A stretch of DNA of 63,460 nucleotides, the filler included. It is 8 parts of 8 records of this genome, joined end to end, with 100 filler letters (N's around TTAATTAATTAA, not from the genome) between each part and the next. Parts side by side here need not be neighbours in the genome. Positions count along the whole stretch, not along the records: positions 23,129 to 27,088 come from SRR7504441_3059; 7 more parts are not named here. One strand, written 5' to 3'. Position numbers and translations under genes: made by a program. Shown piece by piece: positions 1 through 59,131 of this stretch (the first letter of the stretch is position 1; the number at the start of each line of letters is the position of its first letter). The notes beneath the pieces are model-generated. The model searched no databases and was not told the DNA's origin. It saw only the letters and a list, made by a program, of their open reading frames with translations.

Positions 1-3000
1 ACAAGGTACCTGGCCCTGTGCCAGAAGAACCCCAAGGGCCTCCGCGGGATGCTCCACTGGCTCATCCACGTGCCCCGCCCGACCGGCAGACCTAACCGGC
101 TGGCAGGCCGTCGAGGCCAGCTGCCGGCCCGGCTGCGTGGTGTACGCGGCCCGGCCGATGCCAGGCGCCCCCGGCGGGCTCGCGCCGCTCCTCTACCCGA
201 TCCGGCTGTGGCTGTCGGAGCGGCAGCCCGAGGAGCCGGCGGTGCAGATAGACGCTGGCGCGAGACAGAGCTGGCTGGACGGTGGGTGGCCGGCTGGGCT
301 GGGCGAGCGCGATGCAGGGCTCGAGCATGGGTCTGAACTCGAGGCCGTTTACTCTACAGGCGACTGGTACCCGGCGGTCCTCACCGATGTGACGCACGAC
401 CTGGAGACATGCGCGGCCCAGTACACGGTGCAGTGGGTGGACGGTCCGCCCTGCCGGCCGCAGGGGCCCAGCAGGCGGCTCCAGGTGACCCGAACGACAC
501 CAGCAAGACCAGCGAGCAGATCCGGCCGGTGGGGTCCGGTCCGTTGGGGACAGACAAAGTGGGCCGCGACGGGCCGCCGCCCGGCACGGTGGAGATACTG
601 GTGGACCCGCTGCTGCCTGTGTCGGCGCTCCAGCAGCACCTGCTCCGGAGGTGGCTGATCAGCCCGCAGCGCCAATCGGGGGGGTAGGTGCGCGGTGAGC
701 AGTCCTGGGTACACTGGGTGGGCCGAGCAACTCACCGGCTGCTGGGTCGAGATCGAGCTGCCGGACGGCACAGCCGAGCGCCAGCTGGTGTGCGGTGTGC
801 GCTCACTCGGGCCCGGGCTCCCAATGGTGCATTGCCTGGCTGGGGACGCGCAGCACCGCCCCGGCGGAGTAGGGCCATCCAGGGCGGCGCGGGAGTTTGA
901 CGAACGAGTCAATCAAGCTGCCAAGATTGGTGTGGAGTGGCTTGCCAATCCTGCTTCAGAGCACGGGTTTGACCTGATACAGGAGCGAGTGCTGGCCGGG
1001 AGTCAATACAATGTACTTATTCCAGCAGCGTCGGCCTGCTCGGCCAAGGTCAAGCTGCAGCAGGCCATATGGAGCGCGAGCTACAGTGGTGCCTCAGTCC
1101 AAGACCTGCTGGCTGAAGCCCTCGAAGCCATCGTCAGCGGGCAGGCCCAACTCGAGACCGCCGGCCGACTCGGCGCTGCCACTCTCTGGAAGGCCCTCGG
1201 AGCCACTCAGACCAGCCAAACCGCCTGGAAGTTCAGTTCGGACGACCCTCTGGGAGGCCTCAGCTCGCTGGTCAGCGACGCAGTGGCCAGCTGCTCGACC
1301 AGCGTTGCGGCCCCAGCCGCTGAGCCGGCTGCCGATGAGCCGTCGCCATACCGGTGGACAGTGGCAGTGGTGTGCCCGGGAGGAGTGCCAGCAGATCTGT
1401 TCCTGGCTGAAGTGGTTCCAATGCTCTCGCAGATACTGGGGAACAACCTTCGGAGCACCCCCGAGCAGCTAGGCTGGCAGAATGGCTGGGAGGAGATGAT
1501 CGCATCCGTGCAGATCGGAGTTCCAGAAACCACGATGGGCACTGTGGCCCGGGCACAGACCCACGAGGAGGCGCTCAGTGTGCAAGCCGCCATAAGCGTG
1601 TGCATGACTCAGCTGTGGGAAGACGACAGGTTCTCGGAGCTGAGAGCAAAGCAGGTCCAGCAGCAGACTGCTAACCAGCTCAAGCCGGGCGTCCGAGTAA
1701 GGATTCCGGAGCTGGGACAGGACGGCACAGTGCTGCTGCTGGGACAGGAGCAGGCCGACTGTACAGTGAGTGTGGTGACCGACACGGGGCTGTTCTTGCC
1801 AGAGCTGCCGGAGTCATCTCTCCAGTCCGACGGCGGACGGGTGCAGAACCTCGGGCAGGCACCTCTGCACCCGCTCTCGCCCAATGGGCCCAAGCCGTCG
1901 CTGCTCAGCCGCAAGTTGAGTGCTTTCGAGCGGGATCCTTCCAAGCCGTCTGTCAACGTGCAGATGGAGGTCGCAGATGCTGAGTCGACGGGAGAGTTCC
2001 AAGAGGGCAACATGTATCGGGCAGTGCCTGAGCCCAGACTGGAGCTGCACTTCAGCCACGGGAAGGACCCTTACTCGCGGCAGAGCGATCAGATGTGCGT
2101 GTAGGTTTGTTGATTGGGCTTAGCTGTGACTCGCAGGTGTGTGTTCGAACTTCTCGCCCGGACAAGGCTGCCTAACAGCTTCTGGGGTCCTCCAGGTGCT
2201 GCCCGACCAAGCCCCATACAAGGCGCTGACTGTGGTCGCAGTGCGCGCAGAGTACTCCGTTGCACTCCCTGGGGAGGCCCCTGCTGCAGCCCAATTCGAC
2301 ATATCTAGCTGCGTTGGCTCAACAGCAAAGCTGGCTGAAGCCGCTATTCCATTCAAGGCACAAGAGGTGGACTCGGAGCTGAGCTTCGAACGGGCCTGCC
2401 ATCGCCGTGGCTGGGACTTGTCTAGGGTGTTAAGAGAATTGGACGCAAGCCGTCAGCCCTCGCCTGGTCTCAACTGGGGCGTGCTGCTGCGGCTGGCGAG
2501 GCAGAAGGGAGGCTATCCGATCAAGAGACTCTCTACCCGGCACTCTCAGCTATCGAGACAAGCTACTTCAATTGACGCCGCAGATGCAACTGAGGGGGTC
2601 CCAGAGGAGGTAACAATTAGCAAACAGATGGTGCGACTTGAGGCGCTGCTGTGCAGGCAATGCTGGCGCTGGATTCAATCAACATCTTGCGCAGGAAGGT
2701 GCAGGCTATGCCTGGCCTGCTGAGTAAGATGCCCAAAGACGCTTGGATTTCCAAGGTTCCTAGCCATTCTGGATTCAGGATCTGACCTCTGCTGCGCAGG
2801 GGCTCGAAGAAAAGATGCAGGAGCAGATCGCGGATACGCTGTCAATGGCCACTAACGCGCTGCCAGACTGGTTTGTGACTCTCCCCCGACTTGCTCCGTT
2901 TCTCTTCCCGCTGTCGACTCGTTTGATTCAGTTCCGCAGCATGGCGTTCGGCATGTCGCACAGCCTGTGGTGGATGCAGGAGGAGCTAATCAGGCAGCAA

Positions 3001-5148
3001 TTTGGCCCGCAGATGAAAGAGGCGCGGCAGCGCATGACTGATGCTCAGAGACAGAATCAAGACAACCAGCATCTGGTCTACGCCACCAGCATTGAGCTCA
3101 AATTTGCTGAAGCCATGGCGCCTCACCTGAAAACAAAGGCTGATCTTGAGACCCAGTTGGCAGCACGGCAGAGCGGCTCGGCGTACAAAGTGATGTGTGC
3201 CACAGGTGTCAACGTTCGAGTGGCTCCAAATCTGTCAGCCAACAAGGCCGGAAAGAAGCTCCAACAAGGGGAAATTGTGCCGACAACTGGCGACCTTTCG
3301 AAAGATCTCGAGTGGGTCAAGCTGGCCGAGCGTGATGGGCGCACTGGGCTGTGGGCCCGGCACCGGAAGAACACGACTCGGTTCATGGAACTAATGTCAG
3401 GCAAGTCTGGAGAGTCAATGGATACAATTACCCATCGTTTGGAACAATTAGAGACTACAATACAACAAGTGCTCAAGGACTTCGAGTCCAAGTATCCCGA
3501 TTTCTCGTTTGCTACAATGGAGCTGACAGAGAGCGCTTTGACAGAGACGCGGGGTCGACTGAGCAGTTACACTGGAAAGATTCAGCAGCTAGCGATGCGT
3601 GAAGCTGAGGCATGGCAGCCTATTTGGGACCTAGAAGAGCAGGTGATTCGGTGCCTTGCTACTAGTGCTGACCCAGGTGTGTTGCAGGAGGCAGCTGTGC
3701 GGCTTGGGCACAAGCAGTTGAAGTCAGACACAGTTACAGTGGACCGGGAGGCTATACTCGAAACGGCCACTCAGCTGATGACTCAGCGCACTGGCTCCAC
3801 ACATCGGCTCGAAATCAAGTATCTAAATGAGAATGCCTTTGGCAATGGCATTACCCAGTCATTTTACACTGAAGTGGCCACGGCGCTGCAGAGCAGGAAC
3901 CGATTCAGCCAGCTCTGGGGACCAGATCTTGGGAAATCGACCTCCGAGGGGCTTCTATGCCCGAATGGGTTCTTCCCCCGGCCAACAACAACACCTAGCG
4001 CCGAGACCTGTAGCGTATTCCACATGCTTGGGCAGCTGATGGCAACTGCCACCCGAGATGGGTTTGTGGTTCCCTTACATATCTCTCCATACTTCTTTGC
4101 ACTTGTGACGGGCAAAGTGCACGATCTTGACTCCGTCAGCAAAAAGATGGGCGCCCTCCGCTGCTTGGGCCCTATTGGAGAGCGATACAGCGCATTATGG
4201 CGCCTTTGTCTCCGTGTACCAAAGCCCAAAACGCCAGCCGAGGTCGAACAGCTCGCAAACACTGAATTCTGGAAAACCTATCTCAACCCAGAAGCAGAGT
4301 TTGAGTATTCTCTGCTCGACTTCCTCGACGAGATGGAAGATCGAGACCCACTGACCAACCAGCTATTGTGGCCTGTAGGCGACCCTCTGGATCCCATCAA
4401 CAGGCGACTTTTAGCACTTCTTAGCTCAGCTGACCTCTCGGGTTGGCAGGGCAGCCCAGATACACGATACCATCCCACACATCTGCAACCACTGGCTTGG
4501 CGAAGCGGTACAGCCACAAGTGTGTGCGTTCCGAGCTGGTATAGACACTGTCTTCTCTGTGGACTGGGTGAGACCGTCGCGCGCTAGCTCCTGAGGCTGG
4601 GTTCCCAGATGGCTAGCTTCACGACTGCCGAGCTCAAAGACCTGCTGTGCGGCGAGGAGCGGGTGCTGTGGGACAAGAACAGCCTGGCCAAGCATTTGCT
4701 TCCAGCCGGCGGGTAGCCCTTCTGTTCTGAAGCAGTGCTGACTGGGTGTCATAGCTACTCGAAAAGTTCGAAATCATTCAAGTGGATATGCCAGGCGACG
4801 CCTCCTGCTCCCCAGGACTAACCTGTTCTGCCAGATTTTGAATGGCATGAGCCACGAAGAGCGTCGCCAGTTCTTGGACTTCGCAACTGCCATGCCGATG
4901 CTACCCCCGGATGGGCTGCCTGGCCTGAATCTTGAAATTTCCAAGCCATCTCACCGAAAGAATAGGCGTGTACTGCAGCCTGAGCTTGTATCTGAGGGAA
5001 AGACAGGACCGACTGCCTCCCAACGGCCATGACCTGTGCACCCAAACTCTTTCTGCCTGAGTACGAGTCCAAAGAGCAGATGGCCACTCGCATAGAGGTC
5101 GCTATGCTAAATGCTTCAGGGTTTGACGACAGAGTGAGTCCCGTCTAG
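1..5148 (+). CDS. HECT E3 ubiquitin ligase (TRIP12/UPL3-UPL4-like), 5' truncated, about 12 short introns
   Basis: HECT N-lobe motifs LPRLAPFLFPLSTR and LEIKYLNENAFGNGITQSFYTEVA. After splicing introns (e.g. 4404-4449, 4795-4834, 4966-5006) the C-lobe reads ERRQFLDFATAMPMLP...LPTAMTCAPKLFLPEYESKE, with catalytic Cys TGT at 5035-5037 and stop TAG at 5146-5148. Confidence 0.9.
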
Positions 5149-5399: not shown

Positions 5400-5499
5400 N
5401 NNNNNNNNNNNNNNNNNNNNNNNNNNNNNNNNNNNNNNNNNNNTTAATTAATTAANNNNNNNNNNNNNNNNNNNNNNNNNNNNNNNNNNNNNNNNNNNN
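5400..5499. other. Artificial contig spacer (N44-TTAATTAATTAA-N44)
   Basis: Identical 100-nt linker with stops in all six frames, recurring at 9096-9195, 13333-13432, 23029-23128, 27089-27188, 32530-32629 and 58605-58704. Confidence 0.99.
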
Positions 5500-9049: not shown

Positions 9050-9298
9050 ACTATTAAATCTAACTACAAGTGCTAATATATACTCGTGAGCCGGCNNNNN
9101 NNNNNNNNNNNNNNNNNNNNNNNNNNNNNNNNNNNNNNNTTAATTAATTAANNNNNNNNNNNNNNNNNNNNNNNNNNNNNNNNNNNNNNNNNNNNCGAAT
9201 AAAGGCAACTTACGATGCGATAACAACTGTCCTTTGTGTAGAATTGTCTACTAAAATCCTCAGAGAATAGAGAATGGTTTGGACAGCCACGCAGTGAG

Positions 9299-13230: not shown

Positions 13231-14084
13231 GATTATGTACGGCTATAGCCCTTTCCATGGCCGGGACCCCATGCAGGGAGGAATGTGCCGACTTTGGCCT
13301 GTCAGGTTCGGATGAGTTTCTGGGTGGTTGATNNNNNNNNNNNNNNNNNNNNNNNNNNNNNNNNNNNNNNNNNNNNTTAATTAATTAANNNNNNNNNNNN
13401 NNNNNNNNNNNNNNNNNNNNNNNNNNNNNNNNCGCCGTGGCGTGCATATACCTAGACCGGTCGGGACTGGAATCCAGTGGGTGCCGGTGTCGCGAGCCAC
13501 CTGCTGCCGCTGATCGAGCGGCCGGCAGGGCCACGGCCCGGCGGCGCCCCCGAGTCAGGCGGGGCGGGGTCAGGGCTGCCTCCGGAGCGGAACGTCTCAT
13601 GTCCCATCCGGGAATGGGGCCCTCATCTTTACCATCGCCCCCATCGCCCATCGCGTTGGGTGCCTGCCGGACGGTCAGTCAAGCGGCCGCAGCGGGGATT
13701 GTTCGCTATAGGCGCGTACAAGGAGGAGAGCGATGCCGAGGAGTGCGAGCTAGCCTGCGGCAAGTGGCAAGGCCAATGGTACCTACGAGTGAGCGCTTTA
13801 ATAATTAAGAAGCACTCTAGATACTCGTACACGAGTATCATTAGTTACATACCAGTTACAGGACTTGCCGTGGTCTAAGTGCTTGATTGACCACTTGAGT
13901 TCATCGGAGTTAATTCTTACTGTAAGCTTACATGATTGTACTTCTGAATAAATACGGAGATCAGACCCTCGTCTTCACTTATGGTAAGTCAATGGCTTCT
14001 AATCGTTTAATCACAAGCCGTCACCTAGTCCAAACTCGTCCATGGCTGGAGCAAGCTTGCGAGGCTCTAGCTAGGCTCGAATTC

Positions 14085-18907: not shown

Positions 18908-19227
18908 AACGCGGCTTGAGGATGGCGAGCGTGAGGGCACGCAGTGGCTGGTGCGACTCGCTAGCTACTCACGCCGGGTGTCTTTATGTGGTCTCGACTA
19001 GTCTCGACCAGCCGGATCATGTTCAAGATTCAAATGCGAATAATAAACTAAATCGTAATGTAAGTACTTACTCCAACCCCACCCGTGTGTGCCCACGTGC
19101 TCGTGCTGCTACATACATGTGCCGGTGCATGCACTAACCGGTCTAACCCCCCTCTCCTACGTGTACCTGGTACTGTAGACTCTAGATCTACGTGTACATC
19201 TAATCTGCGCCAGTTGCCAATTTAACG

Positions 19228-20906
19228 ATGCATCTCCGAACCGACGCAGCCACGTCAGCCGACGCAGCCACAGCGTCGGACGCAGTCACAGCGTCGGACG
19301 GAGCCATGTCAGCTGGGCGCGACCTTCACACCTCTCCTGAGCAGACCGTGCGGCAGCTGTCCGAGCACAAGTCCGAGCAGGACATGCCCGTGGCCTTCAT
19401 AAGCCACGGCGCAGGGCCCTGCTTCTTCATCCGCGATTTCTGGCGCACCCAATCCGACCCAGGCATTGGGGTGGGCTCGCCGACAGCCGACTTCCTCTCG
19501 TCAATCGCGCAAGCCTTCCCCCGGCCCCGCGCCATCCTCTGCGTGAGCGCGCACTGGGAGTCCAACAAGTCTCGGCTGGCGGTCTCCTCCAGTCGGGCGC
19601 CCGGTATGATCTTTGACTACGGCGGATTCCCGGAGCACACGTACAGGCTAAACTACCCAGCCCCGGGCGACCCGGAGCTCGCCGACCGGGTTGCCGACCT
19701 GCTTACCAAAGGTGGGCTGCCGTGCGAGCCAGAGGATCGCGGATTTGACCACGGAGCGTTCGTACCGCTGCTGCTCATGTACCCTGATGCGGACATCCCG
19801 GTGGTGACCCTGTCCATCCACGGGGGGTACGACGGCCCGGTCCACCTGCGGATGGGCGAGCTGCTCCGACCGCTCCGGCGGGAGGGCGTGCTGATCATGG
19901 GCAGTGGGTCGGCCTCGCATAGCACCAGGGATCCGGCCAAGGTACCTGAGTGGCACCGCTGGATCACAGAGACCCTGTGCGAACTCCCACCCGGTGAGCG
20001 GCAAGCCCGGCTGTCGGACTACCAGGACAGCGCTATCTGCAGTGCGGCGCACCCCCGGCCTGATCATTTGATGCCCCTGCTGGTGGCAGTGGGGGCCGCA
20101 GGGCAGCATCCAGGATACAAGGTCCACGCTCGGATGGCCGCCTTAGACCTGTCCTCGTTCGTATTCTCGTCAGCACTCGATCAGAACCGGCAGCCGGCTG
20201 CGACCGATCCGGCCTCAATGGCAGTGGCCTGGGCGGTGGCTAATAGCCGAGCCGGGGACCCCGAGGGCACGCTCAATGCACTAGATAGGTTCGGGTGGGA
20301 GCAGCAGTGGCTGATGAACGTCGGCGACCGCAAGGGCCAGATCCTGGACTCGGCGGTGCGTCAGGCGCTGGCTGAAACCGACGGGCCGGTGACCGCGCTG
20401 GAGCTTGGGGCGTTTGTGGGGTACTCTGCAGTGCGGATAGCTCGGATCCTGGCGACAGTGCCGGGGAGTCGCTTGATTTCAGTGGAGTCGGAGGCGAGGC
20501 ACGTGGCGCTGGCCCGACGAGTAGTGAAGCACGCCGGGCTGGAGCACGTGGTGCTGGTGGTGCACGCGCCGTCGGGCGAAGCGGTGCGAGGGTTTGTGGA
20601 GCGCAAGGCTGAGTTTGAACTCGTGTTTCTGGACCATCTGAAGGATCTCTACTCGCCAGACGCGCAGGCACTCCAACAAGGCGGCTGCCTGCTCCCAGGC
20701 CGGTCCGTGCTGGTGGCGTTTTCCCGGGCTGCCCGGAGTATCTGGATTGGGTTCGCCAGTGCGGTTTGTTTGAGTCGAAATTTCACGAGGCCGAGTTGGA
20801 ATACACTGAGCGAGGGGGCAAGTGGCAGGTTTACGGGAAGGCCAAGGACCAAGCCTTCCCGGATGGGGTGGAGGTCTCGCGCTATCTGGGCCCGGCGCCG
20901 GAATAG
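19228..20906 (+). CDS. Fusion of a LigB/DODA-type extradiol ring-cleavage dioxygenase and a catechol O-methyltransferase; intronless, frameshifted at ~20719
   Basis: N-half: FISHGAGP, SAHW, IFDYGGFP, RGFDHGAFVPL, GSGSASH, HPRPDHLMPL. C-half: WLMNVGDRKGQILD, LELGAFVGYSAVRIAR, VFLDHLKDLY. The COMT C-terminus FPGCPEYLDWVR...LEY...DGVEVSRYLGP continues in another frame from 20721 to TAG at 20904-20906. Confidence 0.85.
19242..19313 (+). repeat. Four imperfect 18-nt tandem repeats encoding DA(A/V)T(S/A)(A/S)-like units
   Basis: cgacgcagccacgtcagc / cgacgcagccacagcgtc / ggacgcagtcacagcgtc / ggacggagccatgtcagc. Confidence 0.85.
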
Positions 20907-21175
20907 TCACAATCAAAGATAATAAAAGCGATTTATGAAAAACAACAGTAACATTTGTATTAACTAATCTAAAAGTTCTCACCGCCCAAGATCCCCAAGT
21001 GATAAGTGCTCAGTGATTGCTCGCGAGGTACGGAGCTGGCAGGCATGGAAGGTACACTATAGTGCTTGCGCAGCAGGCAGTACATCTGTAGAACAACGCA
21101 CTTATCACTGGCTCACGCATCGGTTGGCACGAAGGCTGCTCTGTGACGACCAAGCTCGCGTGCGAAGAAGGTTAC

Positions 21176-23005
21176 CTACGGTCCGCTGAGGAGCTCCCCA
21201 AGAGAAACCATTTGGCGCAGCTTGAGCCACTTTTCACTAGCTATAAAGTAGTCCACAAAAGCCTGATCGTCGCTGCTGGTGCTCTTTATGTGCCCCATCG
21301 GGAAGTACAACGACACAAACTGGCCGACTAACGGAAACTGCTCCAGCGAGCTGGTGTTGTTGTTGTCCGCCAGCGCGCTGGCCGGCACTAGATTGTAGAC
21401 TGGCTCAGACCTGGTCGCGAACTCGCTGACTGACTCAGGCTTGGCCCGCACCCCCAGCGGTTCCAGCCTTTTCAGCTGGGCAGCGATCGGCGCATTGGCC
21501 GGATCATACGACACAGTCACCGCCTCGAATGCGTTGGTCACAAAGAAGGGCAGCAGCGTGGGCGCCAGCTCGTCAAAGACCGTGTCGCTCTCGCATCGAA
21601 GCACCGTGTCTTGCCCATTGAGCGGCGGTCGCTGCAACCCAAACAGAATCGTCCTGTCCGGACCGCCGGTATGCTTGCCGTCCCCGCGCTGCGGCCCGAC
21701 CGCGTCGGCTAGGTGCTCGAGCAGCTGAAGGCAGAAGCCACGGACAGCTGGCCGCTGGATCAGATCTAGTATCTGAATGCTGAACGCGAGCTCGGTAGGC
21801 GGGGCACTACAGGCCTTTTTGGCAAGGAACGCCGGAGTGTAGTGCGCGTTGTACGCGGGAGTGGGCGACGGGATGATCACTGGGTAGCGGGTGTAACGAG
21901 AAAGCTGGCTGCGAACTGGAAACTCACCGAAAACCTCGCCCTCCTGCGGCCTAGCCTGGCATGTGAGCGCTGGGTTGCCTTCGCTCCCGACCGTGTAAAC
22001 CACCTGACTGGTCTGCTCGAACAGCTGGCGAGCGTAACTCAAGTCCCCGCCGACCGTGTTCATCGCCAGCGATATAGGCTGGTTCCGGACCAGCCAGCCC
22101 GCCAGCTGCTCCATCTGCTCCTGCCCTCCAAACTGCTCCACAGAGGTCACATCCACATAAGTCATCCGCCACTGCTCGTTGATCCCATCAGGCGGGAGCT
22201 CAGAGCCCAGCTTGTAGCATATGTTCCCGTCCTTGCCGGCCGCAGTGTACCCAGCCTCCTGCTCGAACGGCGCTGAATCGAACACACCGGCAAAGGCGCC
22301 GTTCCGAAGCGCGTCTGCAGGAGTGCTCACTGTTGGGGCGTCGACGAACATGCGCTCCATGTCGGCCGGGGTGGTCCCGCCCACGAAGGCGTGCCGGAGC
22401 GCGGTGCACTGGCCCGAGTTTTCTATCATTGCGGAGAGCTGCACGGCGTCACTGATCTCCGAAGTCATCTTCGGTGCAACCAGTGTGTTTGGGCCGCCAG
22501 TCGAGCTGATCACGTTGGGGTGGGTCTGCTTGACGGACTCGGCAACCTCGCGGCTGCTGGTGATGTACATCGTGCCGTCCGGGCAGGCGGCGAACATCTT
22601 GTGCACCTCTGGGATTGTGCATGCAGCGTACGTGACCAGCCCTGTGTCGACCCCGTGCTTTTTCATCAGCCCGAGCAGCAGATCAGCCCAACGGAACATG
22701 TGCTGGGTGGTGTTTGAGCGGGAGAGCACTACCACCGGCACCCCGAGCTCGATGTTCCGTAGCGTCTTGCGCGAGAGATCCAGGAAGTTGGAGAAATTGG
22801 AAACGCACCCGACATACGCGACCGCCCTGCAGATCTCTACTCTCCCAGCCACCTCGTCGGCCAGCAGCAGATCGTTCAGCCGGCGCTCGACCAGGTTGGC
22901 CTGGACTGACTCCTCGATCTCGGTCACGCCGTCCTGCTTCCTAAAGTCCAGCGCCTGGTTCCCGATCAGCTCGGCCGCGTGCTCAGCAAACAACTCCGCC
23001 TCCAC
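21176..23005 (-). CDS. Aldehyde dehydrogenase-superfamily protein (divergent), 5' truncated at the contig edge
   Basis: 609-aa ORF with CVSNFSNF, STGGPNTLV (cf. ELGGKNP) and IENSGQCTALR (catalytic-Cys loop, cf. xGQxCxA); preceded by an intron acceptor ...ggcggcag. Confidence 0.65.
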   Translation of the reverse strand: MEAELFAEHAAELIGNQALDFRKQDGVTEIEESVQANLVERRLNDLLLADEVAGRVEICRAVAYVGCVSNFSNFLDLSRKTLRNIELGVPVVVLSRSNTTQHMFRWADLLLGLMKKHGVDTGLVTYAACTIPEVHKMFAACPDGTMYITSSREVAESVKQTHPNVISSTGGPNTLVAPKMTSEISDAVQLSAMIENSGQCTALRHAFVGGTTPADMERMFVDAPTVSTPADALRNGAFAGVFDSAPFEQEAGYTAAGKDGNICYKLGSELPPDGINEQWRMTYVDVTSVEQFGGQEQMEQLAGWLVRNQPISLAMNTVGGDLSYARQLFEQTSQVVYTVGSEGNPALTCQARPQEGEVFGEFPVRSQLSRYTRYPVIIPSPTPAYNAHYTPAFLAKKACSAPPTELAFSIQILDLIQRPAVRGFCLQLLEHLADAVGPQRGDGKHTGGPDRTILFGLQRPPLNGQDTVLRCESDTVFDELAPTLLPFFVTNAFEAVTVSYDPANAPIAAQLKRLEPLGVRAKPESVSEFATRSEPVYNLVPASALADNNNTSSLEQFPLVGQFVSLYFPMGHIKSTSSDDQAFVDYFIASEKWLKLRQMVSLGELLSGP

Positions 23006-23298
23006 CTGCCGCCCGCTCCCCCCCCCCCNNNNNNNNNNNNNNNNNNNNNNNNNNNNNNNNNNNNNNNNNNNNTTAATTAATTAANNNNNNNNNNNNNNNN
23101 NNNNNNNNNNNNNNNNNNNNNNNNNNNNCTCCTTGCACGCACTGCGCCGCCGGCCGTGCGGACATGGCATTGCTCGTGTCAGCGGGTGTTTCGAGTGTTG
23201 ATGGACGCGTGATCCTAATGAATCAGCCACGTAATACTCCCAGAACCGGGGCAACACACGCCGGGGCAACACAGGTCGCTGGGCGCACCCCGCTAGAC

Positions 23299-24323
23299 AT
23301 GCCGCCGGTGCGGTACGGGGTCGACCACACTTACGAGCCTCCGGGCCCGGGCGACGACTGCTGCGCTTCGGAGCCCTCCGGGCAGATGCCAGCGGACGCC
23401 AACGCAGCGTACGGGGTGGTGCGCGCGGCCTACGCGATGGTGGCCGAGGACAAGGGCGGCTGCTGCGGGACCGACCGGCCCGACTCGGCCTACCTCGGAT
23501 ACTCAGGCGCCCCGCCGGGGGGGTGCCGGTGCGAGCCAGGGGTGCAGCGGAGGACTTGGCGCGGGCGGCGAGCGGGGACATCGGGCAGGGTTGCGGCAAC
23601 CCGCTGAGCTTTGCGCAGCTGCGCCCGGGCGAGACGGTGGTGGACCTCGGCTCAGGCGGCGGGATGGACTGTTTCATCGCCGGCACGCGCGTCGGGTCCA
23701 CTGGCCGGGTGATTGGAGTTGACATGACGGTATCCCCGGGTTGGATCTTTTGAGTTAATGCTGGTTCGGCAGCCGGAGATGATCTCCCGCGCGCGGGCGG
23801 CGGCGACCGAGGGCCAGCACAAGAATGTTGAGTTCAGGCTGGGCGAGATCGAGCACTTGCCCCTCCCGGATGGGGCGGCCGATTGCGTCATTTCGAATTG
23901 CGTGGTCAACCTGTCACCGGACAAGCAGCAAGTGCTTCACGAAATCTTCAGGGTGCTCCGCCCAGGCGGCCGGCTGGCGATCGCCGACGTGGTGACCGAC
24001 GCCGAGCTGCCTGATAGGCTCAAGACTGCTGAGGCGCTGGCCTGCTGAGTATCGGGTGCGGAGGCGCTCGCTTGCGGCATGACGGCCAGGCAGGCGCTTC
24101 GGACATGAACAGACTCGAGCTGATGTTGTCGGAGGCGCGTTTCGAGCGGGTCTCGATTGTGGTCAAGGAGGAGAGCCGGGAGGTTATTGCCCAGTGGATG
24201 CCCGGATCCGGCGCGGAGGAGTTTGTGGTAAGCGCCAACATCACTGCTTTCAAGCCCGAGGCACCGGTCGCTTCTTCAACGTGCGAACCGGCCAAGCCTG
24301 AATCAAGCGGCGGCTGAGCCTAA
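23299..24323 (+). CDS. AS3MT: Arsenite S-adenosylmethionine methyltransferase (ArsM/AS3MT), selenoprotein
   Basis: Exons 23299-23506, 23548-23729, 23773-24055 and 24094-end give [63 protein letters not shown](24046-48)-VSGA and [11 protein letters not shown]. The CDS ends at TGA 24317 or, if that codon is also recoded, at TAA 24323. Confidence 0.92.
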
Positions 24324-24374
24324 GCGGTGTGCTGCTACGAAGCGGTGCGAGGCGTACACAACGGCGTGAGGCGA

Positions 24375-24440
24375 GGCTTGTGCGGTATGACGGCCCTACT
24401 TTAAAGCTTAGCAAGTAGCCGGCCTGAGAATGCGCAAGCC
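24375..24440 (+). promoter_or_regulatory. Eukaryotic SECIS element (type II-like) in the AS3MT 3' UTR
   Basis: Helix I ggcttgtgc (24375-83) pairs with gcgcaagcc (24432-40). Core ATGA (24387-90) faces TGAG (24425-28). Helix II ggcc/ggcc plus ctactt/aagtag. Unpaired AAA at 24403-05, then a gc-tta-gc mini-stem. Confidence 0.9.
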
Positions 24441-24560
24441 CCACACGCAATCGAAGAATCTATCTACAACACTTTCAAGAATGATTAAAATGATAGTTTA
24501 CGAACAATAGAAGCTCACGCCAATGCTTACGATTCGGTTGCTGACCGTTCTAAAGACGCT

Positions 24561-26877
24561 ATGGGGAGATTCGAGTGGGCGCTCGTCCTGCTCCTCTCCC
24601 TTTTGCACGGAACTGGGGCCCGGTCGGCGGCCGAGTGGCGGGCGGTCCGCCAGCGGGTAGTCGATACCATATGGGACCGGGGGCTGCCGTTGGACCGCCA
24701 GCTGCCGGACCGCACGAGCCGGACAAACCACAGCCGACTGGAGCAGCTGCACTGGACCATCAACGGCTCACTGCTCGAGCTCGAGGCGAGCGCGTACTAT
24801 CACCCGCAGCCGGCTAGGAGCAAGGTGCTGGTGCTGCTGCACCACGGACACGCGTATGACAACTGGAACTATACGAGCAACTGCTTTAGATTCGGCGACT
24901 GCTACAACGAGAGCAGCAGACGGTGCGATCTGGGCTGCAGATTCTGGGATCTGAATAACGTATCCCGCTGGTTGCACCAGGAGCTTAATCTGGACTACAT
25001 GATGCTGTATATGCCGCTCATGTGGCCCAACGCTCTGCCCTTTGGCACGGCCGGAGTGGAGCACGATGCAACCGGCAATCACACCGGTCACGAGTGGCTC
25101 AGACAGTGGCAGGCGAGGGGCGAGAGCCCGATCCGTTTCTTTATTGAGCCAACAGTGCTGGCTGAATCGGCTCGGGTATGAGCAGGTGATTGTGATGGGT
25201 TTGTCCGGCGGCGGCTGGGCAACCACGCTGATTGCAGCCATCGACCCTCGGATAAAGCTCTCAGTACCGGTCGCCGGCAGTCTGCCGTGGTACCTGTTTA
25301 CGGACCATCAAGTGGGCGACTATGAGCAGAGGCCGGAGCTGTGTCGTAGGGACACGTGCACTGCAGGCTCCTGCACAGCTGATGGCTCGCGCTGCGCAGA
25401 TTGGTTTCTTACACAAGCCAACTTCACAGAGCTGTACCTGCTGGCTGCGATGGAGCCTGGGCGGACTGCGCTCCAGGTCTTGCACGAAAACGACCCTGTC
25501 TGCTTTCACGGTCGGTCAAGGCACGAGGCGATCCGTGGATACGGTGATCGGGTCGGGGCAGAGCTGGATGCAGCTTTTGGCACTGGTACTGGGTCGCACG
25601 GCGCTTTCTCCACATCGATCGTGGACTGGAATCAGCACGCCTGGGACCCGCACTCCAAGCTCTTAGTCAAGACAGTGGTTGGGCGCTGGCTTACAGGACA
25701 GTTGCGACCTGCCGACCTTGAGAAACTGCCTTGTGACATTCTTCATCATAATTCGACGGCAGTTACATGCCCAGAGCCACCGCCATGCGCCGGTATTAGT
25801 ACCCACCGCACAGCGCTGGCTGGGAGGACCCCTCCTGTGCTGACCCCTGGGTATTTTGGCGCCAACGGGAGCACAGTGAGGTGCAACTCGAGCTGGGGGC
25901 ATGGACGGAGCCTGGCGCCGCAGCCGGAGAATAGCAGGTCTGTAACATTCTGGGGGAGCTGGAGCACCCCGTGCAGCGCTGACTGGGGATTCACAGCCGC
26001 GCATCCGCTCGGCACACCGGCAGGGGCTAGCCGCGGTTTCTTCCCTTCGTGTGACCAGGAGTACGGACCGAGCGTGGAGGCCGATTTGGAGCTCGAGGGG
26101 GGAGGGCTGATGCATCTAATACGGACCGTATCGGATCGTACCGGCCCGTTCAGAGGATACACGTCGGATGGCCAGCCGCCGAGCGGGGCCAATGCGCACA
26201 TTGCTGCTACTTACACCGACTTCAACCCAATTTACCAGGTCTCAGAACCCAATCGGATGAAGCCGTTTGCCAATGCAAAAAGTATGGTGCTCAGGGCAAA
26301 GCAGGCAGTCACGAGGGCTACGCTACCAGATCCGATCACACAACAGCTTCAGCAGGATATGACGGTGTGTTTGATCAACGAGCGGTGTAACGAGACCGCC
26401 TCGAGCTCCTTCTGCCAGATTGGGTTCAACATAAAGACTCACATATCGGGCGTGAACGCAAATGCCCCCTCTGACGACGCGACCGTCCTTAACGACCAAG
26501 GCCAGGGGGGGCTCATCGTTGTTCTGGGTCCTGTCAATGCATATGGCAAAAGCACAAGCTTTTCACTGGGCAAGCGCAAGTTGGTTGCGTGGACCTCAGG
26601 TGGCAACGAGACTCAGTCTGGGACCTTTGGACTAAGCCGTTTCCAGATCGAGGTCAGCTGGACGAGCTTTCTGGGGCTCCTGAGGGCGGTCGTACCCAGC
26701 CCAGAGGGCACCTATGGACCGGAGTGGGACCAGCCAGAGGCCTGGGTGCTGCTCCGGGCTGGATATGGCCAAGAGAACTTCAACAATGATACTAGCGGCT
26801 CCACCAGTGTAATTGAGGGCTGGATCGAGTCGCTCGAGGTGCTGAGCGCTGATCCCAGCATTCCTAGCCTAGGCTAG
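24561..26877 (+). CDS. Secreted alpha/beta-hydrolase with a C-terminal unknown domain; intronless, frameshift at ~25160
   Basis: Signal peptide MGRFEWALVLLLSLLHGTGA; LVLLHHGH; nucleophile elbow VMGLSGGGW; AAIDPRIKLSVPVAGSLP; HENDPVCF; NQHAWD. The two ORFs join out of frame between RFFIEPTVLA and LNRLGYEQ. Confidence 0.75.
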
Positions 26878-27278
26878 CTATAGGCTAGCTACATGTAGTG
26901 ATGGCTAGCCTGATCATGATGTGGCACCTGACTATACAATATCAATTGTGCACAGCTCGTATTACGAGTATTGTGTGGTTCAGATTTTTATCAGACGGAA
27001 TCCAATTCGCTAGATTCGAGCCGACCTGGAAACCGATCGTTAGTCCATTCTCCATTCTAGGCTCCGGAGGGAAGCCCTCGTGTGTCCCNNNNNNNNNNNN
27101 NNNNNNNNNNNNNNNNNNNNNNNNNNNNNNNNTTAATTAATTAANNNNNNNNNNNNNNNNNNNNNNNNNNNNNNNNNNNNNNNNNNNNATAATTTTATAG
27201 AGAGAAGATGCGCACATTGGTCTTTGCACGCTATTTGCACGCTCTTAGCAGGCTTTTTGCTTACATGTACAATCTGAA

Positions 27279-32529: not shown

Positions 32530-32629
32530 NNNNNNNNNNNNNNNNNNNNNNNNNNNNNNNNNNNNNNNNNNNNTTAATTAATTAANNNNNNNNNNNNNNN
32601 NNNNNNNNNNNNNNNNNNNNNNNNNNNNN

Positions 32630-42864: not shown

Positions 42865-45744
42865 TTATTCGAGCGTCTTCCTCATGATTCCTTGGCCCAT
42901 TGAATTAATGTAAAAGTCATTCTCGTACCAATTAGCTGGACCCGGGCCCATTGTAACGATGTCCCCAGTCTCGTCAGTCCACGTAGTGCCATCATCCTTG
43001 CTTTGCCAAACAAACGCAGCATGCGGATGCTCAGCGCTCTGTGTCCCACCAGAGCCCATAAGAACAAGAGTTTTACCCGACCAAGAGTAGATCGCGGTGT
43101 AGCTGAAGGTTGCCACCGCTGCACAGCTTGTCATTGGCTCCCAGTTGTTTCCACCATCAGTTGTGCGCAGCGGTACGTCGCCGGAGCGCGTCACAATCAT
43201 AAAGCTTTCGTTTTTGATCGCCAGGCCTGCAAAGCTGCCCACGAGGCCTGTTGCGTTGCCATGCGGGGTCGGTGGTGGCGGCGGCAGCGGCTTGGTGTAA
43301 GATACCCACCCAGTGTTGCCGTTACCACCAGCGGCGGGTCTCTGCTTAAACCAAATCTGCTTCACATCCGCTGGAGCAGATACCGTCGTGGTGAAGCCCG
43401 TGCAATTGAGCTGGGCCTTGCACCAGATCTCGGCGTTGTGCTCGGTCATGTTAGTCTTGTAGATGTCGCCCCCTGCCGCTAAGAACCCGTCTGACTTGTG
43501 GAACCCGTAAGCGTCAACTGGTGGTGGTGGAGGTGGAGCATTCCAGCAAGGCGCCCACGTCTCGCCCTGGTCAAAGGAACGTGCAATACAGCTAGAGGAT
43601 AAGGAGTAGAGCGTGCTCTTGCCAGTAGAATCTACAGGCCCAGACACAAAGCCTGCCGCTACATGGGGTGGGGTGGCGATGTAAGTAAAGTTGAGGCCCT
43701 GGAAGAAGTTGCTGTTCTTGAGCACGTACACATTGCTCGCGCCCAGCTCAACCTTGTCGTCACGCTTGTCGTGGTCTTCATCATCCTTGTCGTCGTCACG
43801 CTTGTCGTGGTCTTCGTCATTCTTGTCATCGTCACGCTTGTCGTCATCGTCATGCTTGTTGTCATCCTCATCCTCCTCGTCGCTGCTGTCATTGTCCTCT
43901 TCAGGTAGATTCATCGACGCCCTGAGGTCAAGCTCGTCGATCATGCCATCGCCGTTCGCATCAAACTTCATCATCGCCTTATAAGACGCCGCGCTCTTGG
44001 CAGACTGGATTGAGTAGCTTATGGCGCCCTTGCGAGCTGTGTACTGCCAATGCGACGCGTTTGAGTCTGCCATGTGGCACAGAACGCAGTGCTTGTCGCT
44101 GTCGCCGCGCCACACTGCATAATTAGTCCCGGGATACCAACCCATGTTGGTGCCAAGGTCCACGGCTGATAGGCAGGATCCGTTGGTCATTGCGCCCAGG
44201 TCCATCCCCTGCTCGGAGGCCTGGCAGCTGACCACCTCGTCCATGTGCTGATCCCACGGGAGCGGGCCCATGATCAGTGGAGCATAGACCTGGCCGGTGG
44301 GCTCGGCAATCGAGCCAGCCCGGGGTGTGTAAGTCGGCCCGAACACAGTGGAGCCGTGTGGCGTGATGAACCTGGTCAGATTCTTGCCGCCTTGTTTGGA
44401 GCTCAAAATGTTATGATGATGCATTAGAAGCATGTTGTTCGATGAGCCCATTGCATACGCACCGCCGCCTTCGCCGATACACGAACCGGAGGCCCCATCC
44501 TCGGGCGTCTGCCAGCTGGGCCAGTGTGTGCCCGAATCCCAGGAGGCCACGGGCGCCCAGTCCCAAATGGCAGTCACAATGTATCTTTTGCCTGGCCCGT
44601 CGCCTTTGGAGATGGCCGCCTTGAGCGCAATGTTGTTCGACAGGTTCCCGTTGGCCTTGTACAGCTCGAGGCTCCCGTCTGTGGGCATGATGAACAGCCC
44701 TTGGTCCGACGGGAATGCCACTGTGCCCGCAAAGTCCATCGAGATCCTCTGGTAGTCGTGGGCACCCCTGATCACCACTCGCCCTGTCCTGCGCTGGGTC
44801 CGGTTATCGTAGGTGCTGAGCCAGCTGCACGGGCGCTTCATGTTGGGCCCAGGGCCGCAGTCCCGGCTCACAAACGCCCCGCCCATGGCCGCGGTGTACA
44901 AGTTGCCTCTCCGGTCGATCCCACAGTGGAAGATGTTGCTGTGATTCAGACTCTCATAACTCTGCCCGCCGTCCATCGACTGGTAGGTCAGCGGCGGCTT
45001 GGTGTAGATGAAGTGCTCAGGGTTGTTCGGGTTGAGCGCCAGCATCGTGCACGGCCGGTCCGGAAAAGATTTCCAATCGGCCGCAGTCGTATTTATCACC
45101 GTCCCAATCGTAACGTGCCCGCCCAGGCAGGCCCCGAGCATGCTGTTCTTGCCGTTGTTGTCCGAGAGCGTCAAATAGCCGGCGCGGCCCCACCCGCCGG
45201 GCGGGATCAGGCTCCACTGGCCGCCGGCCGCCGGGATGTTTGCAATCCCTCCGTCGCAGCTGGCAAATATGGTGACCACCCCGTTGATGGTGCCGTTTTT
45301 GAATGTCCAGCACGAGCCGAACTTGGTGCTCTCGTTCACAAAGCTCCACGAGGCGGCGCCGTCGGTGGTCTGGTAGATCCCCGAATAGGTGGCCACGAAC
45401 AGGTGATCGCAGGCCACGTTCACACATCCGAGCGCCTTTATCCGGGTGTTGAACAGGCCGTTGCTGGCCACGGTCCAGGTCTTGCCTCGGTCGGTCGACT
45501 TGAGCACGCCGCTGGAGGCCCCGTTGTTCTGGCCGCCCGCGTAGATTAGCTCTGGGTTGGAGGCCGGCGAGACGGCGTCGGCCAGCGTGCCGGCCTCGCC
45601 GCTGCCGTTGATGTCGTCGCCGATCCCGTGCGGTCCCACGTTGATCCAGTCGCCGGTGATGCCCTTTGGAGGCCAGGCCCCCGAGGCGGCCACCGCTGAG
45701 GCGACGAAGCAGACCAGGCCGGCTGCTTTCACGGCTACTTTCAT
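42865..45744 (-). CDS. Secreted BNR/Asp-box beta-propeller protein (Vps10/GH74-like), 959 aa, intronless
   Basis: Signal peptide; Asp boxes STDRGKTW, TTDGAASW, SMDGGQSY, SWDSGTHW, SFDQGETW, TTDGGNNW and SKDDGTTW; internal EF-hand-like loop and D/K-rich repeat. Confidence 0.8.
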   Translation of the reverse strand: MKVAVKAAGLVCFVASAVAASGAWPPKGITGDWINVGPHGIGDDINGSGEAGTLADAVSPASNPELIYAGGQNNGASSGVLKSTDRGKTWTVASNGLFNTRIKALGCVNVACDHLFVATYSGIYQTTDGAASWSFVNESTKFGSCWTFKNGTINGVVTIFASCDGGIANIPAAGGQWSLIPPGGWGRAGYLTLSDNNGKNSMLGACLGGHVTIGTVINTTAADWKSFPDRPCTMLALNPNNPEHFIYTKPPLTYQSMDGGQSYESLNHSNIFHCGIDRRGNLYTAAMGGAFVSRDCGPGPNMKRPCSWLSTYDNRTQRRTGRVVIRGAHDYQRISMDFAGTVAFPSDQGLFIMPTDGSLELYKANGNLSNNIALKAAISKGDGPGKRYIVTAIWDWAPVASWDSGTHWPSWQTPEDGASGSCIGEGGGAYAMGSSNNMLLMHHHNILSSKQGGKNLTRFITPHGSTVFGPTYTPRAGSIAEPTGQVYAPLIMGPLPWDQHMDEVVSCQASEQGMDLGAMTNGSCLSAVDLGTNMGWYPGTNYAVWRGDSDKHCVLCHMADSNASHWQYTARKGAISYSIQSAKSAASYKAMMKFDANGDGMIDELDLRASMNLPEEDNDSSDEEDEDDNKHDDDDKRDDDKNDEDHDKRDDDKDDEDHDKRDDKVELGASNVYVLKNSNFFQGLNFTYIATPPHVAAGFVSGPVDSTGKSTLYSLSSSCIARSFDQGETWAPCWNAPPPPPPVDAYGFHKSDGFLAAGGDIYKTNMTEHNAEIWCKAQLNCTGFTTTVSAPADVKQIWFKQRPAAGGNGNTGWVSYTKPLPPPPPTPHGNATGLVGSFAGLAIKNESFMIVTRSGDVPLRTTDGGNNWEPMTSCAAVATFSYTAIYSWSGKTLVLMGSGGTQSAEHPHAAFVWQSKDDGTTWTDETGDIVTMGPGPANWYENDFYINSMGQGIMRKTLE
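43753..43866 (-). repeat. Coding 18/36-nt tandem repeats (DDDKRDDDKNDEDHDKR...)
   Basis: Repeated cttgtcgtcgtcacgcttgtcgtggtcttc units on the plus strand. Confidence 0.85.
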
Positions 45745-45816
45745 TGCCCTGGCAGCTGCAGCTGTAACTGCAAATCGGGGATCTCTGAGACCTCTCCCGG
45801 CTCACTCGACTGCATC

Positions 45817-58599: not shown

Positions 58600-59131
58600 G
58601 AGGANNNNNNNNNNNNNNNNNNNNNNNNNNNNNNNNNNNNNNNNNNNNTTAATTAATTAANNNNNNNNNNNNNNNNNNNNNNNNNNNNNNNNNNNNNNNN
58701 NNNNAAGAGATGCACGGTGGCACATTGCCGGAAGAGCAACGCCCTAGATCTAGTACGATAGTTTAGTCTAGTCCCAACTTAGTCCAAGCCAATTATAACT
58801 TACTTTAAAGATTGAAACTTTCAAGCTACAAAACTAGTACGTACAACCTCCGGAATAATATTTGCCGGCAACCAAAATTAATTAAATCGGCCGGTTCAAA
58901 GGGCTGCACCAGTCAGGGCTGTCGGGCGCGCTGCTCGAGGGTACGTAGAGGGTACGGTAGCTCGAGCGCAAGGCGGTGGTGGCGCTCTTCTTCGAATTCG
59001 GCTACTCTCGGTCGTCTCGGTAGTCGGGGCTGTGGCTGTGGCTACGTGCCTCGGTGCCTGTGGTACCTGTACTTAAAATACCTGGCAAGATTTCAGACCT
59101 TACCCCAAAGTAACGGAAATTTTACTCCACC

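Follow-up and report, generated by a model that had tools for sequence, protein, structure and literature searches.

The window analysed here is a stretch of 63,460 bases (60.6% G+C) made up of eight contigs joined by N44-TTAATTAATTAA-N44 linkers. One of its pieces carries a four-exon gene of a marine microbial eukaryote, whose predicted product is an arsenite S-adenosylmethionine (SAM) methyltransferase of the ArsM/AS3MT type, about 300 residues long, with a TGA codon inside its reading frame. The gene very probably encodes a selenocysteine (Sec, U) form of ArsM, since the UGA stands at the position of Cys224 of the family, is present in spliced messenger RNA (mRNA) and is followed in the 3' untranslated region (3'UTR) by an element resembling a selenocysteine insertion sequence (SECIS). 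The features of the locus are as follows (nt, nucleotides).

23299-24317 (or 24323), plus strand: ArsM gene, four exons, on the piece 23129-27088.
23299..23506, plus strand: exon 1, placed by its frame, with the Cys-Cys (CC) pairs C21C22 and C55C56; ATG at 23299, start uncertain.
23507..23547, plus strand: intron 1, 41 nt, GC..AG; joint 23503->23545 with 3 places of play in RNA contig X5 record 8.
23548..23729, plus strand: exon 2, with the GQGCGNP cysteine and the SAM-binding DLGSGGG; matched by NF008823 and Pfam Methyltransf_31.
23730..23772, plus strand: intron 2, 43 nt, GT..AG; joint in RNA contigs X3 record 4 and X5 record 9.
23773..24055, plus strand: exon 3, with the SNCVVNL cysteine C173 and ending ...AEALAC-U-VS; from translation and NF008823.
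24046..24048, plus strand: in-frame TGA, candidate Sec222; unaltered in RNA contigs X3 record 5 and X5 record 10.
24056..24093, plus strand: intron 3, 38 nt, GT..AG; joint in X3 record 5, flanked there by 176 nt and 47 nt.
24094..24323, plus strand: coding part of exon 4, ArsM C-terminal domain and Pro/Ala/Ser-rich tail ...SSGG-TGA-GCC-TAA; from translation, and conserved in loci L062 and L013 up to the tail.
24315..24317, plus strand: second TGA, annotated stop or putative Sec299 (GG-U-A-stop).
24376..24439, plus strand: SECIS-like element in the 3'UTR, from Rfam SECIS_1, our own descriptor and the fold; covered by RNA contigs X4 (24186-24485) and X3 (24350-24500).

The gene model draws on contigs from four public runs aligned to 23200-24560, with X3 and X5 being oligo-dT (poly(A)-selected) RNA. 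All three tiny introns (41, 43 and 38 nt) are removed in the oligo-dT contigs, and for intron 1 the interval 23507-23547 is the sole near-canonical placement. The open reading frame (ORF) ends ...AEALAC at TGC TGA, and the frame resumes as GTA TCG G/GC GCT across intron 3; beyond the U there are V, S and G plus 73 residues until the next TGA. Contig X3 record 5 matches 23879-24054 without differences, TGA 24046-24048 included, and then resumes at 24093/24094, so that the exact splice of intron 3 (24055/24094) is found in the same RNA contig that carries the TGA. X5 record 10 likewise spans the codon. Some stretches of the gene, for example 24140-24185, are left uncovered by the RNA runs. A preliminary description of this DNA had read the frame past ...AEALAC TGA and an intron at 24056-24093 into about 70 more residues of ArsM C-terminus, and had noted two CC pairs near the N-terminus (C21C22 and C55C56). 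The sequence and the spliced contig bear these points out, junction included, and the RNA contigs keep the UGA. The contig of run X1 (kind unknown) covers 23262-23781 with introns 1 and 2 kept, as in genomic DNA, and as it possibly derives from the source sample it is not counted as independent support. The 5' end of the gene is open: the piece begins at 23129, 170 nt 5' of the ATG at 23299, a second in-frame ATG lies at 23165 and there is no stop from 23165 to 23299. At base 23717 the window has A and X1, X3 and X5 have C, a synonymous third-position change (GGA to GGC) that is probably strain variation.

Family membership was assessed exon by exon against NF008823 (NCBIfam arsenite methyltransferase / PRK11873; profile length 272, cut-off 263 bits). 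Exon 2 scored 82.1 bits over profile positions 58-110 and exon 3 scored 138 bits over 112-206, in register; exons 1 and 4 alone gave no NF008823 match. The class I SAM-dependent domain Methyltransf_31 (Pfam; cut-off 27) is matched by exon 2 (27.3 bits) and exon 3 (79.7 bits), and the GxGxG-type SAM-binding motif is seen as DLGSGGG in the translation. Two intronless relatives, P0122 and P0123, score 272.8 and 288.1 bits when read through the TGA, above the cut-off of 263. The spliced window protein is 52-60% identical to named bacterial ArsM (52.5% to the arsenite methyltransferase of Paenibacillus dendritiformis, 55.8% to that of Cohnella) and shares 57.7% identity with P0122 in an alignment of 248 residues that crosses the TGA and extends as far as the tail. 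The PDB matches of P0122 are the ArsM/AS3MT entries 5evj, 8xt7, 4kw7, 4fr0 and 5eg5 (E 1e-26 to 1e-24), the next being an unrelated methyltransferase at E 2e-11; a PDB search with exon 3 alone gave alignments that end before the U. The closest relatives of the window gene are metagenome proteins, with 80% identity in exon 3 (best 120 of 7,983 matches).

The cysteines of the family are in place. The C55 and C56 columns are Cys in 91/98 and 90/98 homologues respectively, C85 in 97/98 and C173 in 98/98, and the window gene has equivalents of CmArsM C44, C72, C174 and C224, with U222 at the C224 position. Many members of the Sec clade have an N-terminal extension, and several also have CC-rich linkers (alignment A1, columns 40-200). 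In three of them (P0005, P0033, P0054) the extension has a precomputed thioredoxin Pfam match (PF00085).

When the U is entered as C, 96 of 98 full-length homologues have Cys in its column and the remaining two have W. In the HMMER alignments to 5evj, 8xt7 and 4kw7, the U of P0122 falls on the Cys of the GEC(L)(G/A)GA motif; this Cys is Cys224 in 4kw7/4fr0, and the cysteine of SNCV is Cys174 (counted along the printed 4kw7 chain). The placement of the UGA at the conserved arsenic-binding Cys, claimed in the preliminary description, is supported by the U-to-C alignment and by HMMER. The preceding column, occupied by Cys221 in the window, holds G in 63, S in 14, A in 12 and C in 7 of the 98 homologues in the same alignment. 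The window motif U-V-S-G also fits the 'UxxG' given for bacterial Sec-ArsM in the relevant part of PMC13188914. The UGA can be followed from the genome into spliced poly(A) mRNA and onto the Cys column, with a conserved frame on either side.

The 3'UTR holds the second line of evidence. Rfam SECIS_1 matches 24376-24439 on the plus strand over the whole model (1-64) with UAUGA, AAA and UGAG in place, and this is the sole SECIS_1 match among the five that Rfam gives for the window at E up to 10. The hairpin begins 58 nt 3' of TGA 24315-24317 on the same strand and lies about 290 nt 3' of the Sec codon in the mRNA; the region is transcribed, as the X4 and X3 contigs span it. Helix I has 8-10 base pairs (bp), and helix II has about 10 bp and is interrupted by a CC bulge. 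UAUGA...UGAG is in place and the AAA of the apical loop lies 12 nt past the AUGA, so that the canonical SECIS parts (AUGA, GA, helix II, AAA, helix I) are all present. The 72-nt element folds at -29 kcal/mol, better than 198 of 200 shuffles (z -2.73). Our own descriptor ((A/G)UGA, at least 8 pairs, AA 10-14 nt 3', GA, and at least 5 pairs in helix I) finds one site on both strands of the window, this element; 20 mononucleotide shuffles gave 1.45 sites on average. Of the hairpin first described at about 60 nt past the coding sequence, the position, the ATGA/GA core, the two helices and the AAA hold; the mini-stem is marginal, with 2 bp round a 3-nt loop in the minimum free energy structure and none in the centroid, and the claim of full SECIS geometry has to be qualified by a SECIS_1 score of 24.6 bits against a threshold of 35. 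The element would direct the reading of UGA 24046-24048 as selenocysteine.

Relatives show the same interruption. Exon 3 gave 7,983 matches, the best 120 of which were examined, and 22 of these terminate exactly at ...A(L/F/M)AC; two more (P0059, P0101) show W, in the context ...AC-W-V(A/S)GA..., which we read as the same TGA translated as Trp. Altogether 24 of the best 120 are stopped at, or have W at, the codon, one being a diatom, Cyclotella cryptica (EukProt, P0064), whose EukProt model of the gene stops at ...ALAC. The NCBI model of the same diatom gene, KAL3780108.1 (P0125), leaps from ...TAEALA straight into the later C-terminal domain, at ...EVEVTLKEESREV..., and so drops the putative Sec-bearing stretch as a false intron. 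At the DNA level, TGA occupies this column in three of 80 metagenome loci (80 kept of 594 confirmed), namely L013, L062 and L048, and each of them has an open frame that extends into the conserved C-terminal domain. L013 and L062 are intronless and eukaryote-like. L048 is a 103-kb, bacterial-looking contig with ArsM at 2462-3259 reading ...LYCG-U-VTGA; just 3' of this Sec-ArsM lies a Cys-rich ORF starting MNKELWGKCVEFHGHECPG. Exon 4, used as a query, retrieved 22 database fragments that begin past the first U, their C-terminal part conserved. The prediction that standard gene callers would truncate such an enzyme is thus realised in the 22 of the best 120 homologues that end at the codon.

A FastTree phylogeny of the core region was built from 119 rows (27 TGA-type and 92 Cys-type), four Cys-type matches having been left out because the motif filter missed them. 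All 27 TGA-type rows lie on one side of one branch with a Shimodaira-Hasegawa-like support of 93, and 0 of 500 label shuffles gave a value as low. Since the TGA-type rows are separated by one branch, a single origin of the Sec form may hold among these sequences.

Several observations weigh against reading the UGA as Sec. (i) MAFFT, given X at the U, places Cys221 on the invariant Cys (98/98) and treats the U as an insertion; this register is an artefact of a neutral X beside a Cys, and because it differs, the position of the U is taken from the U-to-C alignment, from HMMER and from the fit of U-x-x-G-A without gaps. (ii) The SECIS_1 score of 24.6 bits is below the Rfam gathering score of 35, and the match has E 2.1 for the whole window over all 4,227 families; for the single-family question E is about 5e-4 (2.1 divided by 4,227, our arithmetic). 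(iii) In L062, a SECIS-like pattern at 1252-1293 has a fold no more stable than that of shuffles (z -0.07), and Rfam gives no match for it. (iv) ARAGORN found no tRNA in the 63-kb window (0 tRNAs), and no Sec-machinery gene was seen among the 53 scanned of its 120 ORFs of at least 150 residues. With the E limit set at 1, Rfam gave no match anywhere in the window, since the SECIS match stands at E 2.1 for a search of that size. Nor did an Rfam SECIS search of L013, L062 and L048 give a match, the L013 sequence ending 96 nt past its stop, too soon to show one.

Three other explanations of the codon were weighed. The one that survives best, itself very improbable, is that a variant code or near-cognate read-through gives Trp, Cys or Arg, and not Sec, at the TGA. 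It can point to the two database relatives translated with W at the codon. A general use of TGA as a sense codon is countered by the window itself, which has standard-code ORFs of 978, 945 and 794 codons free of stops; with such ORFs of 794-978 codons lacking TGA, the codon is no general sense codon. The residue aligned in homologues is Cys, the usual partner of Sec, a SECIS-like element stands in the 3'UTR, and the family is among the experimentally verified bacterial selenoproteins in Table 1 of PMC13188914.

That the TGA is a true stop, leaving a truncated methyltransferase of 221 residues or a decaying pseudogene with the downstream exon untranslated, is hardly credible. The 22 database proteins that end there under standard gene callers, and a SECIS match below threshold, would agree with it. 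Against it, protein-level conservation continues past the TGA in the window, L013 and L062, the exact 38-nt splice restores the frame, P0122 and P0123 reach positions 269-270 of the 272 of the NF008823 profile only with read-through, and the truncated protein would be without the invariant arsenic-binding residue. An assembly or sequencing error for TGC/TGT, or RNA editing, has a negligible probability: the assembly behind the window is fragmented (8 contigs) and of low coverage, yet the codon is spanned by an RNA contig in each of two runs (X3 record 5, X5 record 10) with no difference listed, and the same stop is found in 24/120 homologues and in two independent eukaryote-like loci.

The Sec reading of the UGA also has precedent. 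The preliminary description had taken Sec-ArsM to be only sporadic; it is instead a listed family in bacteria and aquatic eukaryotes, according to the passages of the papers that treat it. PMC2375036 describes, in its passages on the subject, a Sec methyltransferase (MT) of the algae Ostreococcus tauri, O. lucimarinus and Thalassiosira pseudonana, which was identified via its SECIS and is homologous to a selenoprotein of bacteria. In the corresponding part of PMC2398784, 'arsenite S-adenosylmethyltransferase PRK11873' appears among ocean-metagenome (GOS) selenoproteins, and arsM is named among the selenoprotein families of both prokaryotes and aquatic eukaryotes. The relevant passage of PMC7539508 lists MT among algal selenoprotein families, and Table 1 of PMC13188914 gives arsenite methyltransferase (UxxG) as an 'experimentally verified' prokaryotic selenoprotein. 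PMC5552862 discusses diatom arsM as a transfer from bacteria and has selenocysteine only in a reference title. Sec-ArsM from bacteria and aquatic eukaryotes is therefore already in print, and the window gene is a further member of this known family. The published algal MT sequences presumably belong to the same clade. The algal proteins and the predicted window product share the character of a Sec methyltransferase, and the diatom P0064 lies in the truncated clade of the window gene.

Comparison with the known systems shows where the window gene stands. It shares with bacterial Sec-ArsM, of which L048 is such a locus, the profile NF008823 and the Sec position U-x-x-G. In bacteria the SECIS lies within the coding region, as stated in the part of PMC13188914 concerned, whereas the window gene has a hairpin of eukaryotic type (AUGA...AAA...GA) in the 3'UTR, introns and a poly(A) mRNA. 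The same source names, where it treats multi-Sec proteins, three ArsM-type families (NF047649 methyltransferase/UXPK-star, NF041536 and NF041537). NF047649 is described there as an ArsM-like domain with UxxG and a further Sec close to the C-terminus, and the window likewise has UxxG and a candidate second Sec; its exons score 49-83 bits against the cut-offs of 460-575 of the three families, and the candidate tail, (G/C)-U-(A/G)-stop, differs from the UXPK-stop of NF047649. Membership of the window gene in an NF047649-type double-selenoprotein family was rejected on these grounds (exons 49.1 and 82.5 bits, P0122 147.7 and P0123 138.8, cut-off 460). CmArsM, CrArsM and human AS3MT (4fr0, 4kw7, 5evj, 8xt7) have the same fold family and conserved cysteines as the window product; they differ in having Cys at the U position, Glu before it where the window has Cys, and another C-terminal domain.

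As(III) is presumably held by the equivalents of Cys174 and Cys224 while both methyl groups are transferred, and a disulfide formed by the N-terminal cysteines presumably reduces the pentavalent intermediate. In the window enzyme the selenolate of U222 would bind As(III) together with C173 of the SNCV motif, and C55/C56 and C85 would be the N-terminal redox pair of the family. Cys221 beside U222 would form a vicinal Cys-Sec pair. The enzyme is predicted to methylate As(III) with SAM, and may do so.

The annotated stop raises the question of a second Sec. TGA 24315-24317 is followed by GCC TAA, which gives the alternative end ...SSGG-U-A. DNA-backed ends are available for three sequences: the window (GG-U-A-stop), L062 (...KGG-U-G-stop) and L013 (...GGG-U-G... 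and then ...VGC-U-G-stop). Among the 22 fragments, 11 end in G (GG 5, SG 4, AG 1, EG 1) and 4 in C; ending in G is a feature of 11/22 fragments vs 7/96 Cys-type proteins (Fisher p 1.2e-5). The fragment tails are unalignable, Pro/Ala/Glu-rich and 17-60 residues long, often with CC pairs, and a Cys pair is found within the last 15 residues of 25/98 homologues. The second UGA lies about 70 nt 5' of the SECIS core. The minimal SECIS spacing is 51-111 nt. On this evidence we lean towards UGA 24315-24317 also being read as Sec, in a protein ending ...GG-U-A. The points on the other side are that DNA is known for only three sequences, that the stop codons of the fragments are unread, and that P0059 and P0101, in which TGA is given as W, end soon past ...ARK/...AKK without a tail.

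A second Sec would sit at the end of a flexible Pro/Ala/Ser-rich tail, where many Cys-type ArsM have Cys-rich tails. A wider proposal is that the marine eukaryotic Sec-ArsM is a double selenoprotein, with one active-site Sec and one near-last Sec on a Cys-dotted, Pro/Ala-rich tail ending (S/G)-(G/C)-U-x-stop, an arm like that of thioredoxin reductase, both served by one 3'UTR SECIS; for this the case is evenly balanced. Thioredoxin reductase ends in GCUG-stop, with its penultimate Sec on a flexible arm. The end of L013, ...GC-U-G-stop, is like it, and as the enzyme families differ the resemblance is one of design only. A Sec-tipped arm would capture As(III) or re-reduce the catalytic disulfide, and together the vicinal Cys221-Sec222 pair and the Sec-tipped tail would have a role, still speculative, in redox recycling or substrate capture. 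The papers on algal MT mention no second, C-terminal Sec in their passages on these proteins, and full-text searches returned no mention of a C-terminal Sec in eukaryotic ArsM within article text, published algal sequence supplements being outside their scope. If true, the C-terminal Sec would add an example in which a single SECIS serves two UGA codons, the nearer one at very short range, and would give a methyltransferase an arm that bears selenium.

Arsenic methylation by marine phytoplankton is a large share of the ocean arsenic cycle, and a Sec enzyme of this kind would link it to selenium supply. As the gene stops at the Sec codon in database models, surveys of full-length proteins miss the clade, and counts of arsM in marine eukaryotes made in this way miss or mangle it.

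The remainder of the window provides context. Its linkers lie at 5400-5499, 9096-9195, 13333-13432, 23029-23128, 27089-27188, 32530-32629 and 58605-58704. Since the contigs are separate, the order of the pieces is no evidence that genes on two of them are neighbours, and the gene 5' of the ArsM gene is on another contig. Eukaryotic domains found in the scanned ORFs are Sec7, tubulin-tyrosine ligase, NatA auxiliary subunit, UCH, RCC1 and ankyrin. At E up to 1e-5, Pfam gave no match for three long ORFs, at 21179-23026 (minus strand, 616 codons), 42868-45801 (minus, 978 codons) and 2764-4584 (plus, 607 codons). A 572-codon ORF at 19204-20919 on the plus strand combines two domains, a LigB-type extradiol dioxygenase and an O-methyltransferase (Methyltransf_3).

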